Assembly: GCA_965279375.1 (NCBI GenBank)
Contig: OZ257156.1
Span: 192,001-256,000 of the forward strand
Direction: 5' to 3'
DNA from: Gemmatimonas sp.
GTDB taxonomy: Bacteria > Gemmatimonadota > Gemmatimonadetes > Gemmatimonadales > Gemmatimonadaceae
DNA length: 64,000 bases
Shown here: one piece after another, positions 4,161 to 55,095 of the stretch
How positions within the stretch are numbered: position 1 is the stretch's first letter
How the letters are laid out: each line of letters begins with the position of its first letter
Program-made: the position numbers and the translations under genes
Notes under the pieces: generated by a model
What the model was told of the DNA's origin: nothing
Databases searched by the model: none
The model's input: the letters and a program-made list of their open reading frames with translations, nothing else

Positions 4161-4227
4161 AAACTAGGACGCCGCTGCGTCAGCGCAACGTCAGCGCTTC
4201 GTCAATCGCAGCGTCAGCGCAACGTCA
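4161..4227 (-). promoter_or_regulatory. Putative M1 peptidase promoter overlapped by five phased TGACG repeats
   Basis: Plus-strand CGTCA at 4178, 4189, 4200, 4212 and 4223. Minus-strand TTGCGC(4188-4183)-16nt-TAGTTT(4166-4161). Confidence 0.5.
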
Positions 4228-9783: not shown

Positions 9784-12700
9784 CTAAGGCTGCGTGCCCG
9801 CGTTCAGGTCGTTCCAGTTCATGATGGCGTTGAAGCCCATGATGAACGTGCCCTGCGTCTGCCAGCGCCAGAACGGACGGATGGTGAACATCACCAGGTG
9901 TCCCTTGCCGAGTGGCGAGTCGATGACGTTGGGGCGATTCGAGAGATTCTCTCCGCCCTGCAGCACGCCGGAGAGCAGCATGTCACGCGGGCTACCGGGC
10001 CACGCCATGACCACGCGCGGCTTCATGTCGCCGAGCGTACGAAGCGGAGGTGCGGCCGCCGCTCCACCAGCGCCACCGCGTCCGCCAAAGCCACCTTCGA
10101 ATGCAGGGGCAGCAGACGACGTTGTGGGCCACTTCTGCATCGGATCCCACACCGAGTGTTCAACCCACGTCGCCATCGGCTGCGTGTTCTGATACACGCC
10201 GGGCTGACCACCGAAACCACCGGGGCCACCGCCGCCGCCAAGCGCTGTACCCGCGAGCGCGCCGGAGCTGCCCGGACGCAACACGTCGGTCTTGCTGATC
10301 GGTGCGGCATTCGGCGTGACGGGTACGCCCGCATCGAGCAACGTGCCGCCGCTGTAGTAGACCGGCATCTGATTGACGTCGAAGCCGTAGGCGATCGGGC
10401 TGGTCATATCGGTGATGACACCGCGCAGGATCGTGCCGCGGTTAACCAACCCTTGCGCTGCCGTCGGGCGCAGGCCCGGCGTGAGGCTGTAGGTCGGGAA
10501 GATGCCCGACGTGCCGCCTTCGGTGATGAGCGTGCCGCCAGCCTGCACGAACTCGTGCAGCGCCTTGAGCCCATCTTCACCCAAGCCACCGCGCGTATCG
10601 GCGGTCGAGTCGGGATAGCCAAGCGCGGGATATTCAGCGGTACGCTGATACGGGATCGGCTTGCCATCGGTCGGCGGCGCCTGTCCAACTGCACCACCAT
10701 GCGGCCACAGGATCACGTCGAACTTCGTGCGCAGCGCGCCCAACTTGCGGACGTTGTTCTCGCCGAAGTAGCTGTACGGGATCTTGTAGTAGTCGAGCGC
10801 CGCACGCACCCAGCCTTCGTCTTGCGTGTTCGTCCAGCTGTGGATGTAGCCGATGCGCGGAATGTCGAGGTCGTGCGACTTGACCGTCGGCGCGACATCA
10901 ACCGCCCAGGCGGAGAGACCGAGCTCCTTGAGGGCCGGCTCGAGCTGCGCCTTGTTGGCCTTGGCGATGATGAACGAGCCCGCGCCGAACTTGTGGCCCG
11001 CGGCTTCGAACGGCGCTTCCGCGGCCGACATCTTCGTGGTGGCGAGGCGATAGCGCAGCGCGACCATATTGTTGTCGCCCGTGTGCTCAACGATCACCGT
11101 CGCACCCGAGCCCGCGATACCACCCGCGGCCGTCACGTGCCCCGAGACCGGCGTCATGCCAGCGGTGAGCAGTGCGGGATCCTTGATCTCGTGCAGGATG
11201 ATGTTGCGCATCATCTGGTACGTCCAACCGGTGTCGTCGTAGGGCGACGGGTTGGTGGTCGGGTAGTTCTGGATGCTGAAGTACATGTCGGCGATGGTGC
11301 GCAGCGGCTGATCGCCACGAATGATCCAATCGCCCTTCTTCACATCGACCGTGCCGAACTTGCCGTCGGCGTTGGCGACGTGGAACTCGAGACCCTGGTC
11401 GATGAGCTCATTCACCGCTTCGGCCGCGTTGGCCTTCGCATGCTGCGACGCGGGAACGACCCACCCCTTCACTGGGCCGAGCACACCCTTCTTGATCGCG
11501 TTCTTGTTCTTGATCCAGTAATTCTCGAGGAAGCGCTCGCGCTCCTTGCCCGTATTCCACAGTGCGTAAAGCACCGCAGACTCCTGGATGTTGGTGTTCG
11601 CGCGCGGGCCCCACTTGATGTCGTTCGGGGTGGGGTTCGGGCGGAACCACTCACGACTCTGGTTGTAGTTCGTGCCGCCGAGGATGCGCGTGAGCGACGA
11701 GTCGTTCACCGGCGCCGCTGCACCGGCTCCGCGTCCACCACGACCTGCGCCTGCACCCGCGCCCGCCGCCGGAGCCGCGCCGCCAGCCGCGGGCGCTGCC
11801 GCTGCCACCGGGCCGGGGCCACCGCCACGCGCGGCACCGCTGACGCCATCGCAGCCGGAGCCGTAGCTCTGCACTTCGTAGAAGCGACCGATGGCGTTGT
11901 GCGAGTGCACGAGGAAGAACATGTAGTTGGGCACCCAGCCGTCGTAGAACCCATAGGTCCACACGCCGGGCACGCCCTGCTTGGTCATCTCCATCACGTC
12001 ATTCTCGGCCATGTACCACCACTCATTGATGGTGATCGGGTCGAGCTGTTCGTTGTACGGACCGGTGCCCGTGGAGACGTAGAGCAACGTCTGCGCTTCG
12101 TGCAGGTCATGCATGATGGTGGGGTGCCACGTGTTGGCCACACCGCGCACGTTCTGCGTCAGCTTGAGGTACTGGCCCATGCCGTCGCGGTTGTTGTCGT
12201 GCGCGACGTACTTGCCCCAGTAGGGAGTGGGGAGGTTGAGCCCAGTGCGCTGACGGAAGCAGGCACCGTCCACGATCTTGTCGCGGCCGTCCGGCTCGAT
12301 GACCGGCGTGATGAGCGTGAGCACGTTCTTGCGGATGCCGGAGATCATCGCGCCGTCATCGACGACGAGACGATAGGCCAGCTCCATCAGCATTTCCGGT
12401 CCGCCGGTTTCGGTGGAGTGGATGCCGCTGGTGAGGTAGTAGACCGGCTTCGCGATGCCGAAGAGCTGCTTGGCGCGCTGCTCACTCGTCTTGCGCGGAT
12501 CGGCGAGCTCGTTGAGGTAGCCCTTGTAGGTGTCGAGGTTCTTGATCGTCTCTTCGTCGGCGATCGCGAGGACGACCATGTCGCGTCCTTCTTCCGACTT
12601 GCCGATCGTCCAGAACTTCGCGCGCGTCGGCGCCGCGTCAGCCACGGCCTTGAGATAGCGATGGATGTCGCCGGACTTGGTCAGGTAGCCCGGCGTTCCC

Positions 12701-12939
12701 ACGATGCGATTGATGCCGGGGAACTTGAGCGTCGTCGGGACTTTCTCCGACGCCGGCATGTAGTTCACCAGATCGGTGCTGATACGCGGGTCCGTGAGAT
12801 ACTGCTTGATGAGCTTGGTGTACTCATCGTCCTGTTTCTGCGTGGCCTGCGCGCCGGCACGCGGAGCGGTCGCCAGTGCAGCAGCGGCAACGCACGCGGA
12901 CCAGGCCAGCCGACGCATCGACGGTGTCGAGCGGAACAT
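9784..12939 (-). CDS. Secreted M14 family zinc carboxypeptidase
   Basis: GKSEEGR, GIHSTE (HxxE), PDGRD, DNNRD and DLHE; signal peptide; GGAGG before ATG 12939. Confidence 0.9.
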   Translation of the reverse strand: MFRSTPSMRRLAWSACVAAAALATAPRAGAQATQKQDDEYTKLIKQYLTDPRISTDLVNYMPASEKVPTTLKFPGINRIVGTPGYLTKSGDIHRYLKAVADAAPTRAKFWTIGKSEEGRDMVVLAIADEETIKNLDTYKGYLNELADPRKTSEQRAKQLFGIAKPVYYLTSGIHSTETGGPEMLMELAYRLVVDDGAMISGIRKNVLTLITPVIEPDGRDKIVDGACFRQRTGLNLPTPYWGKYVAHDNNRDGMGQYLKLTQNVRGVANTWHPTIMHDLHEAQTLLYVSTGTGPYNEQLDPITINEWWYMAENDVMEMTKQGVPGVWTYGFYDGWVPNYMFFLVHSHNAIGRFYEVQSYGSGCDGVSGAARGGGPGPVAAAAPAAGGAAPAAGAGAGAGRGGRGAGAAAPVNDSSLTRILGGTNYNQSREWFRPNPTPNDIKWGPRANTNIQESAVLYALWNTGKERERFLENYWIKNKNAIKKGVLGPVKGWVVPASQHAKANAAEAVNELIDQGLEFHVANADGKFGTVDVKKGDWIIRGDQPLRTIADMYFSIQNYPTTNPSPYDDTGWTYQMMRNIILHEIKDPALLTAGMTPVSGHVTAAGGIAGSGATVIVEHTGDNNMVALRYRLATTKMSAAEAPFEAAGHKFGAGSFIIAKANKAQLEPALKELGLSAWAVDVAPTVKSHDLDIPRIGYIHSWTNTQDEGWVRAALDYYKIPYSYFGENNVRKLGALRTKFDVILWPHGGAVGQAPPTDGKPIPYQRTAEYPALGYPDSTADTRGGLGEDGLKALHEFVQAGGTLITEGGTSGIFPTYSLTPGLRPTAAQGLVNRGTILRGVITDMTSPIAYGFDVNQMPVYYSGGTLLDAGVPVTPNAAPISKTDVLRPGSSGALAGTALGGGGGPGGFGGQPGVYQNTQPMATWVEHSVWDPMQKWPTTSSAAPAFEGGFGGRGGAGGAAAAPPLRTLGDMKPRVVMAWPGSPRDMLLSGVLQGGENLSNRPNVIDSPLGKGHLVMFTIRPFWRWQTQGTFIMGFNAIMNWNDLNAGTQP

Positions 12940-13047
12940 CCTGCCTCCTTCAAGGGAATGGGCCGCGGCGGAGGGCTGCGGTCGCATTGGGTGGTGTACT
13001 CAGTGTACGCGCAGCTCAAGGATTTCGCGGTAGTGATTTTCCCTCCA

Positions 13048-13284
13048 GTAACCGGTAACCGCAGACGTCGTTCGCTCCACTCAAGACCGACCACCCACCA
13101 CTCGTGACCCGAAACAGAGGAGTGTCAGAGCGGCGGCAGCGCGCAGTGGCCAGTGCCCAGTTCAGAGTCTTTCACTCAGATCAGGCGGGGTCGAGAACCG
13201 CCAACCCGACACAACCCTGTTGCGGGCTACGGGTGGTGAGTGGCGGGAGATCAGTAGAGCGAACGGCGTGACCGGTTACCGAAC
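13048..13284. mobile_element. 237-bp non-coding foldback element, copy 1 (MITE/REPIN-like or structured ncRNA)
   Basis: Ungapped ~90% identity to 52694-52930; terminal inverted repeats and long self-complementary arms. Confidence 0.7.
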
Positions 13285-13314
13285 TACCAACGCGGTGACC
13301 GATTCCCCCAGAAC

Positions 13315-13352
13315 GCACAACGGGCCGGAGATCAGTCTCCGGCCCGTTGCGC
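13315..13352 (-). terminator. Hairpin terminator after SusD-like gene 1
   Basis: CAACGGGCCGGAGA-tcag-TCTCCGGCCCGTTG, about 20 bp past the stop. Confidence 0.75.
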
Positions 13353-13370: not shown

Positions 13371-14936
13371 TCAGGGAGGGGTCGGCGAGTTGGCCGGGCC
13401 CGTTCCGCCCCACGTGTAGAGCGCTTCGCCCTTCACGCCCAGCTCCTTGGCCGGCACCGGCATTTCACGCGGCGTGCCCTCGAGCAGGCCGTCGGTGCGA
13501 CGACGCCAGTAGTACGGCGCCGGGCCGAGGCCCAGCAGCTCCACTTCCATCTCGTAGCCCAGCTTGGTGGTGAGGCCTCCGACGCCGTCGCCGGCAAGGG
13601 CCGCCGACAAGCCACCGCGCGTGACGCGGGTCTTGTTGATCAGCGTCGCCGCGTTGGCCAGCGAGCCGCCCGTGCGGATCAGTGCTTCCGCCCAGACGAG
13701 ATCGTTCTGGGTGGCCGAGATGACCGGCGCGGGGCCGAAACCGCCGTAGATGCCGGACGGATCCTGCTTACCGGTGCGATCGTAGCGGATGTGGCCGATG
13801 TTCGACTGGTGATACGAGCCGCGGCTGGGGCGGAAGATTTCGTCGCGCGAGTAGACGAAGTCCGTGCCGCCGTTGGCCGTCTTGGGGTTGGTGCCGAAGC
13901 CCCCGACGGTCGACGCATCGCCGAAGGAGCCATCGCCCAAACGCTTGTCGGGCGAGTTCGGCTTCGGATTACCACCCGCCGGGTACGGCGTCTTCTGCGT
14001 CGCCGGATCGAGCATGTTGGCCACGCGGGTGTGGACGCGACCGCCGTCGAAGCCATCGAACCAGACGAGCATTTCATGGCACCACGAGACGCAGCCGTCG
14101 CCAACGAAGACGAAGTCGAACGGCGTGCCGCTCGACATGCCGGCGGAGGCGAAGTTCAGAATCTGCGTCCAGTTGGCCGCGGTGTTCTCGGCGCCGGTGC
14201 GCGGGTAGTACGCCAGCGTGATCGCCGCCATCGTGTTGGCAACCTGCGCGATCTGAGCGCTCGTGTACGACACGCCGTTGGTCCACGCTGCCGGCGTCGT
14301 GAACGACGTCGCCTTGGCGATGTTGGCCGCCGAGGTGAGCTTCGCGACGGCCGCATCGCGAATCTGCTTGCGATTGGAGTAGACCAGCGTCGCCGGGTCG
14401 GTCGTTTCGTCGACGATGTAGCCCTTGTCGTAGTTGAGCGCGATGTAGCTCAAGCCGGCGCCCAGCATCAACTCGGACACGGCTTCGGCACGCTTGGTGT
14501 CGGCCGCGTTGTTGATCACCGTCTTGTTCACACGGATGGCCTTGAGCACGTCCACCGCCGACGACATGGCGGCGTACATGCCCACCCACGGCACTTCCAT
14601 GCTGGTGCGACCGGCCGCGGCCGGATCGTTCTGCCACGGGCGCGTGAGGCGCTTGCCGTCGGCGTCATAGCTGGAATAGAAGTTCATGTTCCAGTTATTC
14701 CATGAGGCCGAGAAGGTCTGCGCCTGCGTGACGAGCACGCAGTTGCCTTCGCATCCGTCGTACGCGTTGAACCAGGTGCGCATCGTGCCGCCCGCGACGG
14801 CTTCGAGCGCCGCGGGGTCGGAGAGTGCGCGCTTGGCATCGGGCGCGTTCGGGTTGGTCACGTCGAGCGAGCCGCATCCGGCGACGGTAACCGTCGCCAT
14901 CACGCTGACTGCTCGCAAAAATCGCGTCATCTGCAT
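13371..14936 (-). CDS. RagB/SusD-like lipoprotein
   Basis: Lipobox VAGC, LDVTNPN, AEALIR, INKTR and C-terminal MPVPAKEL; directly follows the SusC gene. Confidence 0.85.
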   Translation of the reverse strand: MQMTRFLRAVSVMATVTVAGCGSLDVTNPNAPDAKRALSDPAALEAVAGGTMRTWFNAYDGCEGNCVLVTQAQTFSASWNNWNMNFYSSYDADGKRLTRPWQNDPAAAGRTSMEVPWVGMYAAMSSAVDVLKAIRVNKTVINNAADTKRAEAVSELMLGAGLSYIALNYDKGYIVDETTDPATLVYSNRKQIRDAAVAKLTSAANIAKATSFTTPAAWTNGVSYTSAQIAQVANTMAAITLAYYPRTGAENTAANWTQILNFASAGMSSGTPFDFVFVGDGCVSWCHEMLVWFDGFDGGRVHTRVANMLDPATQKTPYPAGGNPKPNSPDKRLGDGSFGDASTVGGFGTNPKTANGGTDFVYSRDEIFRPSRGSYHQSNIGHIRYDRTGKQDPSGIYGGFGPAPVISATQNDLVWAEALIRTGGSLANAATLINKTRVTRGGLSAALAGDGVGGLTTKLGYEMEVELLGLGPAPYYWRRRTDGLLEGTPREMPVPAKELGVKGEALYTWGGTGPANSPTPP

Positions 14937-52417: not shown

Positions 52418-52663
52418 ATGCCAATCTACGAGTACGTCTGCACTGCCTGCCAGCACGAGTTCGAGACGCTGGTGCTCGGTGGCCGGGTTCCCGCCTGTCC
52501 CGCGTGCAACAGCGAGGCGCTGGAGCGACTACTGTCGCTGCCGAACGTGAAGTCTGAAACGACGCACGGACTGGCGATGCGCGCGGCGAAGCGACGAGAT
52601 CAGAAGTCGGGGAATGAGCGCATGCAGGAGCAACGGATTTACGAGCAGAGCCACGACGATTGA
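52418..52663 (+). CDS. FmdB-family zinc-ribbon protein
   Basis: MPIYEYVCTACQHEFE...CPAC. Confidence 0.9.
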   Translation: MPIYEYVCTACQHEFETLVLGGRVPACPACNSEALERLLSLPNVKSETTHGLAMRAAKRRDQKSGNERMQEQRIYEQSHDD

Positions 52664-52667
52664 AACT

Positions 52668-52697
52668 GCGGATGTAAGCGGATGTAAGCGGGCGTAA
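52668..52697. repeat. Tandem 10-mer (GCGGATGTAA)2 GCGGGCGTAA
   Basis: Directly visible; abuts the foldback element. Confidence 0.8.
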
Positions 52698-52957
52698 CCG
52701 GTGACCGGTCACGCCGTTCGCTCCACTCAAGACTGCCCACTCACCACTCGCGACTCGAAACAGAGGAGTGTCAGCGCGGCGGCAGGGCGCAGTGGCCAGT
52801 CCCCGGTTCAGAGTCTTTCACTCAGATCAGGCGGGGTCGAGGACCGCCAACCCGACACCACCCTGTCGCGGGTCTCGGGTGGTGAGTGGCGGGAGATCAG
52901 TGGAGCGAACGGCGTGTCCAGTGACCGAACAACGAACGGCGTGACCGGTCACCGAAC
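52694..52957. mobile_element. 237-bp foldback element, copy 2, with duplicated right end
   Basis: ~90% identical to 13048-13284; the right-end unit is repeated at 52907-52930 and 52934-52957. Confidence 0.7.
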
Positions 52958-53001
52958 AGCAAACATCGTCACCGGCGACCCGTTACGCTTGGCTCAAACG
53001 A

Positions 53002-53033
53002 AACGCGCCACGCTGCGAGCAGCGTGGCGCGTT
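53002..53033 (-). terminator. Hairpin terminator after the ankyrin gene
   Basis: AACGCGCCACGCTG-cgag-CAGCGTGGCGCGTT followed on the minus strand by a T-rich tract. Confidence 0.75.
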
Positions 53034-53058
53034 CCTCGTTCACCAACCGACGACTACC

Positions 53059-55095
53059 TCAGCACGACTTGCACTTGTTGCTGTTCACCGCACCAAGTCG
53101 CACGAGGAAATCCACCGTTTCCACGAAAGGCGGAATGCGCTGCACCGGCCCGTTCGCCATGTCGGCCGTCGTCTGCCCCTTGCGGCTGATCGCCTTCACG
53201 TCGGCGCCCTTGCTCACCAGATACGCGATGAGCACCGTGTCGCCGCGCGCGGCCGCGTGGTGCACCGCGTTGTAGCCGTTGAAGTCCCGCGCGTTCACGT
53301 CCATGTGCAGCTCTTCCACCAGGTACTTCACGGCGGGGAGCCAGCTATCCGGCGCGTGGCGGTGCGAGTTGGCAGCAAAGCCTTCGCCGTAGCCCACGCC
53401 AGACGCCGCGTGAATCGCCAGGACACCGGGGCCGCCCGCAGGAACCGGCGCCAACCCCGACGGATCCTTGTTGGGGTCTCCGGCGGCGTCATCCGGCGAC
53501 GCATCGGCGTTGAAGCTGCGACCGGCCGGCTTAAGCGTCGGGAGATTCACATCGGCGCCGTACTTCACAAGTAGCTTCATCGCTTCGACGTCCGTGCCGT
53601 ACGCAGCGCGCCAGAACGGCGTCGCGCCCGTGGTATTCACGCCGAGCAGGTCGAAGTTGTACGACATGTACCAGAGGTGCTTGTTGAGGCGCGCGTTGAC
53701 GTCGGCACCGGCCTTGATCAGCGCTTCCATCAGCTCTAGGTACGTCGTCTGCTGCTGCAGCTGCGCCGTCGGCTGCGGGTAGAGCGACTTGGCCGCCCAC
53801 TGCACGTTGATGACCGTATAGAGCGGCGTCGCGCCCGCGTCGCTGGCCAGCTTGGGGTTCGCACCCTTCTCCAGCAGCGTCTTGGCCAGATCGAAGCGGC
53901 CATTGATCGTCGCCATCAGGAGAGGGCTCGTATGATCGCCCGCGCTCACCTGATTGATGTCCGCGCCGGCCTTGAGCAGTGCGTTCACCGACTCCGCGCT
54001 GCCCTGACGCACCGCGAACAGGAGCGGCGTCAGGCCGCCCTTGTTGCCCACCAGATCGCCGTAGCTCCCGGAGCCGTTGATACGACCGCCCGTCGAGTCG
54101 CCACCGGCCGCTGCCGGCCCTGCGCCACGACCACCGGCGGCAGGTCCAGCCGCCACGCGCGGCGCCGCACTATCACCACGCATCGCACGCGCGGGACCAC
54201 CGGCCGTTGCTGACGGCGCTGCCGCTGACGGCGCTGCCGCTGCGGGCTTTGCCGCTGCGGGCTTTTCCGCGGACGGCGCCGACGGAGCGGATGGCGTCGG
54301 CGCAGGCGCTGCCGCCGCGACGGCAACAGGTGCGGGCGCCGGTGTCGCTACTGCGCCCGGCGCGCCGGCAGGACCGCCCGCTGGATTGCCCGGCGTGCCA
54401 GCGCCGCGCGGGGGGGCCTCGGCCGATTTCATCGCGGCCACGCGCCGTGCGCGAAGCCCCAGTGCCAAGCGGTCCGCACGCTCGCGCGCGGCCACGTCTT
54501 CGATCTTGGACGCCGCCTTGATGTCGGCACCCTTGGCGATCAACAGCTCCACCGCGCCCGCGCGATTCGCTGCCGCCGCCCACATGAGTGGCGTCTGTCC
54601 GAACGCGGTCTCCTTGGCATCGATCTTGGCACCCGCCGCGATCAGCGCTGCGACCGCCTCCACATTCCCCTGCTCTGCCGCGAAGTGCAGCGGCGTGGCA
54701 CCGCCAGACGTCGTGACGACGTTGGCGTTCGCGCCCGCAGCCAGCAGCGCCTTGACCGTGGCAGCCTTGCCCGCTTTGGCAGCCAGATGCAGCGGCGTGT
54801 AGTTGCCGTTGCGCGTGGCCACTTCGAGACGCGCACCCGCCGTGATGAGCATGCTGGTTAACCGTGCATCACCGCGCGCGGCCGCCCAGTGCAGCGCCGT
54901 CATGCCGTCCGGCTGCGCGGCATTCGCATCGATGCCCTGCTTGAGCAGGATGCGCACGGACATCGAGTCCCCGCGCATCACCGCATCGGCCACCGGCGAT
55001 TCGGTGCGATCGTAGGTCCGCGTCGGCGTCGCCGCCGACAGCAGCACGATGGCGCCGATCGACGCGGCGCCGAGGAGGAAGCGGTTGTTACGCAT
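53059..55095 (-). CDS. Exported ankyrin-repeat protein
   Basis: GMTALHWAA, TPLHLAA, TPLHFAA and TPLMWAA repeats; Ala/Pro/Gly linker; overlaps the DUF1552 stop. Confidence 0.92.
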   Translation of the reverse strand: MRNNRFLLGAASIGAIVLLSAATPTRTYDRTESPVADAVMRGDSMSVRILLKQGIDANAAQPDGMTALHWAAARGDARLTSMLITAGARLEVATRNGNYTPLHLAAKAGKAATVKALLAAGANANVVTTSGGATPLHFAAEQGNVEAVAALIAAGAKIDAKETAFGQTPLMWAAAANRAGAVELLIAKGADIKAASKIEDVAARERADRLALGLRARRVAAMKSAEAPPRGAGTPGNPAGGPAGAPGAVATPAPAPVAVAAAAPAPTPSAPSAPSAEKPAAAKPAAAAPSAAAPSATAGGPARAMRGDSAAPRVAAGPAAGGRGAGPAAAGGDSTGGRINGSGSYGDLVGNKGGLTPLLFAVRQGSAESVNALLKAGADINQVSAGDHTSPLLMATINGRFDLAKTLLEKGANPKLASDAGATPLYTVINVQWAAKSLYPQPTAQLQQQTTYLELMEALIKAGADVNARLNKHLWYMSYNFDLLGVNTTGATPFWRAAYGTDVEAMKLLVKYGADVNLPTLKPAGRSFNADASPDDAAGDPNKDPSGLAPVPAGGPGVLAIHAASGVGYGEGFAANSHRHAPDSWLPAVKYLVEELHMDVNARDFNGYNAVHHAAARGDTVLIAYLVSKGADVKAISRKGQTTADMANGPVQRIPPFVETVDFLVRLGAVNSNKCKSC
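54209..54283. repeat. In-frame 15-bp tandem repeats in the ankyrin linker
   Basis: (GCTGACGGCGCTGCC)2 (GCTGCGGGCTTTKCC)2, encoding KPAAA/APSAA units. Confidence 0.75.

Follow-up and report, generated by a model that had tools for sequence, protein, structure and literature searches.

Two non-coding stretches of the window (the whole 64,000-nucleotide piece of DNA analysed here, G000:C1:192001-256000) belong to a genome-specific family of DNA palindromes. The sole gene of the PF05635 four-helix-bundle family in the same genome lies between two further members, and the palindrome is likely the binding site of the protein that this gene encodes; we infer both this binding and the mobility of the unit. 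The genome, G000, is a 5.31-Mb single contig, 99.95% complete.

An earlier note on this DNA described 13048-13284 and 52694-52930 as copies of a 237-bp foldback element, ungapped, with about 24 mismatches. Alignment gives exactly 24. Both copies are indeed intergenic and in the same orientation: copy 2 lies between convergent FmdB-like and ankyrin genes, and copy 1 between a 521-aa gene and an M14 peptidase gene (Table 1). Neither contains a credible ORF, and no transposase domain appears in the 36 + 4 ORFs of the window scanned against Pfam (198 ORFs are listed), both as the note had said. The foldback, too, is confirmed, with z values of -8.4 and -8.5 and none of 200 shuffles as stable. What did not hold was the count of two. 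Here, BLASTN and nhmmer find 11 full copies in G000, at 205048 (copy 1), 244694 (copy 2), 335507, 2703500, 2704187, 4237285, 4699258, 4838398, 5100846, 5104040 and 5109412.

Table 1. Features of the two window copies and their surroundings (positions in the window).
Feature	Position	Strand	Remarks
Copy 1, conserved body (family columns 5-234)	13052..13281	+	left arm 13053-13126, middle 13127-13207, right arm 13208-13281
Copy 1, left-arm ladder, six 7-mers each ending AC	13074..13115	+	register same in G086 and G025 arms
Copy 1, left 10-bp self-complementary end motif CCGGTNACCG; direct repeat of right end	13052..13061	.	9/10 identical
Copy 1, right 10-bp end motif	13272..13281	.	
Degenerate extra 27-bp right-end unit after copy 1	13282..13305	+	from sequence; limits by eye
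Terminator-like hairpin of upstream 521-aa gene, not part of repeat	13320..13348	-	conserved in relatives; putative terminator
Copy 2, conserved body	52698..52927	+	left arm 52699-52772, middle 52773-52853, right arm 52854-52927
Copy 2, left-arm ladder, six 7-mers	52720..52761	+	
Two decaying extra 27-bp right-end units after copy 2	52928..52988	+	outer limit by eye
FmdB-family zinc-ribbon gene, left neighbour of copy 2	52418..52663	+	host gene
Ankyrin-repeat gene, right neighbour of copy 2	53059..55095	-	host gene
M14 peptidase gene, neighbour of copy 1	9784..12987	-	host gene
521-aa gene after TonB-dependent receptor, neighbour of copy 1	13371..14936	-	SusD-like by position only; no Pfam/NCBIfam match

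The 11 full copies align without gaps over 237 columns and are 87-95% identical over columns 15-222. Columns 6-79 pair with columns 161-234, and inverted homology takes up about two thirds of the unit. The terminal inverted repeats of about 28 bp in the earlier description are present, but they are imperfect, the left arm of copy 1 having five and the right arm of copy 2 three mismatches to the motif given there. At six mismatches or fewer, this 28-nt end motif has 33 matches in 13 clusters in G000 and none in the reversed genome. A 36-nt core said to be identical is so in the two window copies, but the other nine copies differ from it at one or more positions. Beyond the full copies, two variants (1715920, 2217021) keep the arms but have another middle, and two short remnants (1948657, 1580357) lack the core; the middle of the unit matches only the 11 full copies. 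All 13 large units adjoin the 3' end of a gene, according to a noisy ORF heuristic with neighbours read by eye.

The arms are built of 7-mers. At lags of 7 and 14 their autocorrelation reaches 0.40 and 0.38, respectively (p<=0.001 by 2000 mononucleotide shuffles), and each arm ladder consists of six consecutive 7-mers ending in AC, 42 nt in all. The self-complementary 10-mer CCGGTNACCG stands at both ends of the unit, 6-9 of its 10 positions being identical between the ends. This means that the hairpin body also lies between direct repeats. Palindromes can, of course, be lost between short direct repeats, and when the flanks of copy 4699258 are joined at the 10-mers, the resulting sequence agrees with remnant 1948657 at 57 of 62 positions. 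The core-less remnants are read here as deletions. The converse, that they are empty targets, is disfavoured by G086 and G025, which carry full doublets behind what appears, matched by eye, to be the same gene as that of remnant 1580357. The ends of the family are ragged, several copies having extra partial units of 27 bp (right) or 38 bp (left).

Outside G000, the unit as a whole is not seen. BLASTN did not find it in 60 relatives (two 35-nt matches with E~5e-4 were dismissed), and with the whole unit at E<=1 it returned nothing above noise in five close relatives. Exact 25-26-nt patterns gave no match in metagenome and genome collections. Plasmids gave no match to the unit, and phages a single 38-nt match in coding sequence.

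The sole PF05635 gene of G000, at 2703694-2704086, lies 2.45 Mb from the window between copies 2704187 and 2703500, with a full doublet on each side. Its product (130 aa, TIGR02436) is an Avd-like four-helix bundle with a homologue of solved structure, 2GSC (E=1e-13), which has five chains. It keeps the residues that are invariant in the family and, in a comparison of 43 sequences, shows neither HxH nor any tyrosine; no catalytic or nuclease motif can be recognised in it. To our knowledge, this widespread family has a solved structure and no known function. On the assumption of roughly 4,500 genes (our own estimate, made from the size of the genome), the probability that two copies bracket this particular gene by chance is of the order of 1e-5.

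Bracketing alone is, however, not unique to the PF05635 gene, because a two-gene BlaI/BlaR1-like module (5101713-5103934, L155; weak matches, below cut-off) is likewise bracketed, in G000, G086 and G025. G078 and G107 lack this pair at the orthologous junction, and it is possibly cargo that has been gained or lost between direct repeats. Apart from these two, the arms surround no long ORF in G000. In three relatives (G087, G026 and G084; loci L043, L048 and L050), a PF05635 cassette stands before a BlaI-like gene, apparently at the site of the gene-less G000 copy 4237285.

The wider genus was searched for the same pairing of gene and repeat. PF05635 is present in 80 of its 87 genomes, and most of the 30 PF05635 loci listed carry inverted short-repeat arms, as judged by eye. 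G086 has an intact orthologue, 60% identical, with the same neighbours and related arms. The arm of G086 has 24 matches in G086, 11 in its sister G025, and none in G078, G096 or G099; the arm beside the PF05635 homologue of G096 has 24 matches in G096 and none in four other genomes. These pairings come from three genomes (G000, G086, G096), all of them kin. An arm model finds 26 matches in G000, 25 in G086, 16 in G025 and 6 in G088, with 1-4 weak ones in six others and none in 77 of the 87 genomes; because it was trained on G000, G086 and G025, its counts there are not independent. Across these three training genomes the 7-mer register is kept, and most other letters vary. Doublets occur in both orientations in G086 and G025, for which reason the idea that an inside-out orientation marks a circle junction was rejected.

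The sister genome of G000 is G078 (support 0.98 in a three-protein FastTree of 20 genomes, whose inner nodes are weak). At 89% completeness, it has no PF05635 match, no arm match, and an empty junction at the site of the gene. Other relatives count against a strict dependence of the repeat on the gene, in that arms persist in them without an intact cognate. The orthologous gene in G025 (L152) appears decayed by an internal deletion, and its repeat family remains. G088 (86% complete) has no PF05635 match, yet has its arm matches, and the doublets of G107 do not match the one PF05635 locus of that genome.

The junctions of relatives bear on how the family came to its sites. The earlier note had suggested a search for empty sites in relatives, and three of the 11 copies lie where relatives have no such repeat. 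Copy 2 is a lineage-specific gain: none of five relatives (G078, G086, G099, G025, G107) has the repeat at that junction, which measures 395 bp in G000, about 40-50 bp in the first four and about 95 bp in G107. Copies 335507 and 4838398 likewise have no such repeat in five of five and six of six relatives with a readable junction. The right-arm haplotype of copies 244694 and 335507 is shared with 5100846, which is likely their source.

The FmdB-ankyrin junction (52664-53058) is a hot spot in its own right, with unrelated repeat-built hairpins in other relatives (loci L084, L087, L088, L090, L091, L094, L095, L097, L099, L100 and L105). Just before copy 2, at 52668-52687, stands a tandem pair of 10-mers that resembles, by eye, repeats behind a GxxExxY gene at G000 1666898, and it is possibly the remnant of a second repeat family at this site. 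Elsewhere in the window, intergenic positions 4173-4227 hold a 21-nt repeat four times over with an 11-nt rhythm.

The remaining eight of the 11 copies occupy old sites that hold diverged versions in relatives. The copy 1 site is empty in G078 and G099 and holds a diverged doublet in G107. The two flanks of the gene and the sites of 4237285, 4699258, 5100846, 5104040 and 5109412 have doublets or single arms in G086, G025 or both, with some of the orthology judged by eye from flanks. With eight of 11 at old sites, a recent burst of all copies is rejected. The copies of G000 nevertheless resemble each other far more than they resemble the occupants of the same sites in relatives. They are also mosaic, 266 of 496 informative site pairs being incompatible, fewer among near sites (p=0.015). 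The family thus spreads to new sites and is also rewritten at those it already occupies. Possibly, of course, the occupancy of old sites in relatives reflects independent reuse of hot spots. Logan contigs from four runs of the organism contained no excision joint or circle; such contigs drop rare variants, and this result has no bearing on excision.

The promoters of PF05635 genes offer a further guide. Those of relatives have in common a motif about 70 nt before the start and a -10-like box just before ATG, a spacing that suggests a leaderless mRNA omitting the upstream arm. A promoter profile was built from 38 relatives' leaders out of 44 leaders of PF05635 genes, leaving out that of G000 itself, one that is truncated and four with doubtful starts. 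In 20 genomes, comEA leaders have a median score of 21.7 with this profile; 13 of 19 score at least 20, and in 18 of 19 the best site lies at the same distance from the start codon. Scores of at least 20 are reached by 7 of 19 comEC leaders and by none of 19 dprA leaders; dprA follows an obg-like gene and may therefore be internal to an operon. The fmdB control leaders (0 of 19) and the reversed-sequence controls gave none. The link with DNA-uptake genes is firm for the PF05635 family in this genus.

For G000 itself, seven sites lie above the best reversed-genome control (22.0). They belong to two Uma2 genes, a ComEA-like gene, a gene for a DnaB C-terminal domain, a toxin-antitoxin-like pair, a GspH/FimT-like pilin and one unassigned gene, with the ComEA-like and pilin-like genes among the top six. 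Since the other four of the top six (the two Uma2 genes, the DnaB C-terminal gene and the toxin-antitoxin-like pair) are not uptake genes, the motif may mark a wider stress regulon. The spacing is also the same in the leader of the PF05635 gene of G000, but its score, 13.4, is lower than that of the best control, and the comEC leader of this genome reaches 4.8. For this particular gene, the link with uptake is weak.

Several of these genes deserve a record of their own. The putative Uma2 endonuclease genes (L114, 840300-840908; L119, 2025574-2026128) have promoter scores of 31.9 and 23.7, and their proteins are candidate partner nucleases. L116 (3827110-3827646), which has the same promoter pattern, is a short gene that encodes the DnaB C-terminal domain and no other. 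At L117:439-1162, a two-gene toxin-antitoxin-like pair (VapBC-like by eye) stands behind the uptake-gene pattern.

The explanation that we regard as somewhat probable is that the unit is a REPIN-like DNA repeat and that a four-helix-bundle ring linked with competence recognises it; the ring would protect the single-stranded hairpin or deliver it to host recombination. Here, the PF05635 protein would be made when the cell takes up DNA, and its ring would bind single-stranded DNA at the 7-mer ladder of the hairpin. The bound protein might then shield the hairpin, or hand it to the recombination machinery of the host. The current version of the repeat would overwrite old copies through their common arms, and illegitimate recombination would occasionally patch new copies in behind stop codons. 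Loss of the hairpin between the 10-bp end repeats would leave the core-less remnants. A ring that reads periodic repeats is known in TRAP, and the picture of a ring on a ladder is drawn by analogy with it.

A more general form of this proposal is offered tentatively, as something we think rather doubtful. PF05635 proteins may form rings that are induced with competence; by reading the 7-mer ladders of single-stranded hairpins, they would propagate and refresh their own repeat in the course of natural transformation. Repeat and protein would then make up a transposase-free replicator that writes over old copies, plants new ones behind stop codons and flanks cargo, the BlaI/BlaR1-like module being an example.

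We think it unlikely that the unit is a classical MITE or REPIN whose transposase or nuclease is encoded elsewhere in the genome or has been lost, the PF05635 gene being only a passenger or a favoured landing site. Terminal inverted repeats, a fixed ungapped length and three gains are what such an element would show; the bracketed two-gene module that is missing in G078 and G107, and the promoter common to the two Uma2 nuclease genes, also speak for it. Further, the right arm carries, at columns 207-210, GTGG in 10 of 11 copies and GTAG in one, although about 10 nt separate it from the start of the nearest short palindrome. The 10-bp direct repeat at both ends could be read as a target duplication; it is the only motif that a search for target-site duplications found, and the relatives are too diverged to supply a base-exact empty site. 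The motif is, however, the same at all sites, and is therefore probably part of the element rather than a duplication specific to each site. The enzyme itself is also missing from the families searched genome-wide in G000, which were PF01797, GIY-YIG and GxxExxY: PF01797 (Y1/RAYT) has no match, and four GIY-YIG matches and one GxxExxY match all lie far from any copy. The ends noted earlier flank no transposase, RAYT or nuclease gene in this search, nor does an arm pair surround a transposase-sized ORF of unassigned kind. The arms frame just the PF05635 gene and the BlaI/BlaR1-like module, and the pairing of gene and repeat recurs with different repeats in relatives. The earlier suggestion of a non-autonomous REPIN-like unit is therefore kept in part. 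In its favour are the doublets dispersed between genes, the repeat on both sides of a single-copy gene, and the three gains specific to this lineage; the lack of any Y1/RAYT match in the genome, a bracketed protein lacking HxH and tyrosine, and the eight old sites speak against it.

We consider it rather unlikely that the family is a neutral by-product, in which slippage makes 7-mer hairpins beside the gene and host recombination scatters and homogenises them, with no recognition of repeat by protein. Mosaic copies, ragged tandem extensions and core-less remnants would all be expected of such a process, as would repeats that survive without an intact gene in three relatives, and the unrelated hairpins that fill the FmdB-ankyrin junction in other lineages fit it as well. 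Against this, genomes that differ in the letters between still keep one 7-mer register, and 97-99% of arm pairs remain intact in copies whose identity is 87-95%. Moreover, at the unrelated sites of the gains there is no homology for recombination to target, and the sister G078 lacks both gene and repeat.

The hairpin might instead act as RNA in mRNA 3' ends, as a stabiliser, terminator or RNase III site like those of 23S rRNA intervening sequences, possibly bound by the Avd-like protein. The fold is very stable, the copies adjoin 3' ends of genes, and passages of PMC4990558 and PMC10053308, respectively, have RNase III cutting out the intervening sequences of the PF05635 family and Avd working with RNA in retroelements. 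The percentage of paired positions is reached by 7 of 500 shuffles and the covariation score by only 6 of 500, values that relatedness alone can give. Two-sided changes are seen at 2 of 77 consensus pairs, which 278 of 500 shuffles reach, so that the covariation proposed as a check proved weak. The pair of columns (93/108) once read as compensatory is G-C in five copies, C-G in two, G-U in two and broken in two. Rfam, at gathering and E-value thresholds, gave no credible match (best E=0.22, at half the gathering score). G.T and A.C mismatches are balanced (9:6 and 35:51), and the antisense strand folds better in 8 of 11 copies with RNA parameters and in 5 of 11 with DNA parameters, with no consistent strand bias; balanced mismatches and mixed folding fit a DNA palindrome better than a stranded RNA, although the unit may still affect mRNA ends. 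With both orientations relative to neighbouring genes, a promoter spacing that suggests a leaderless mRNA without the upstream arm, and no RVT_1 (PF00078) reverse transcriptase match in G000, an RNA element, and with it the earlier alternative of a multicopy structured ncRNA, is quite improbable.

A single 152-nt contig of a freshwater metatranscriptome, with a depth of 2.5, corresponds to the right half of the unit (window 52804-52926). Its closest copy is 5109412, at four differences; its source could be DNA, and we give it no weight as evidence.

Known systems resemble the unit in part. Passages on REPINs or BIMEs with RAYT (TnpA-REP) in PMC3116915, PMC3333891 and PMC3733652 describe extragenic doublets whose inverted arms fold into hairpins, which lie behind genes and can have further units in tandem; the families are specific to a genome, and the repeat stands on both sides of a single-copy gene, all as here. 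The partner here is, however, a four-helix-bundle protein, the arms are 7-mer ladders of about 75 bp where REPINs, in those passages, have stem-loops of 20-40 bp directly behind GTAG, and there are only 11-13 copies. The Ssn/NTS system, a GIY-YIG single-stranded-DNA nuclease, SsnA, with its hairpin repeats, is similar according to passages of PMC11893778 in that a small gene of one domain lies between copies of its own hairpin repeat, that this repeat is dispersed in the genome, and that there is a link with natural transformation. The PF05635 fold is unrelated to that nuclease and has no known nuclease activity, the arms here are longer and 7-periodic, and the link with transformation is a promoter pattern rather than an experiment. 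Because the defining nuclease was not found in G000, where no GIY-YIG match is flanked by the repeat, the unit belongs to neither system.

Intervening sequences of 23S rRNA that bear an ORF (S23p, PF05635) place the same protein family inside complementary arms, and the pages of PMC4990558 on them note direct heptamer repeats in the 5' region. In G000, a PF05635 ORF within complementary arms occurs at the 2.70-Mb locus only. Unlike those sequences, the present units lie outside rRNA, among protein genes (the window has no Rfam match), include dispersed gene-less copies, and flank the gene with complete doublets on both sides. The Avd protein of diversity-generating retroelements is of the same four-helix-bundle family, its homology to PF05635 being stated in a passage of PMC10053308, but no reverse transcriptase was found in G000, and no template/variable repeat pair was seen beside the gene. 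Bacterial MITEs (ERIC, NEMIS, RUP), in passages of PMC3733652, are likewise non-coding, of 70-300 bp, multicopy, with terminal inverted repeats and next to genes; the present family differs in its ragged ends, in the extent of its inverted homology, and in that no matching IS ends or transposase were found.

In the open-access literature, no paper was found that links PF05635 genes to dispersed palindromes or to competence; the passages of PMC4679880 on heptamer repeats draw no such link. What this analysis adds is a count of which sites are old and which new, the remnants that lack a core, the 7-mer register seen across genomes, and a promoter test with controls.

The locus supplies a candidate substrate for the PF05635 family, a 42-nt ladder within a 230-bp hairpin. 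It also comes with non-cognate arms from relatives to serve as controls, with a prediction of when the gene is expressed, and with a sister genome in which neither gene nor repeat was found. If the proposal is true, the systems that join a gene with its cognate palindrome, REPIN/RAYT and Ssn/NTS, would be joined by one in whose protein no nuclease motif can be recognised, and there would be a source for intergenic heptamer hairpins.
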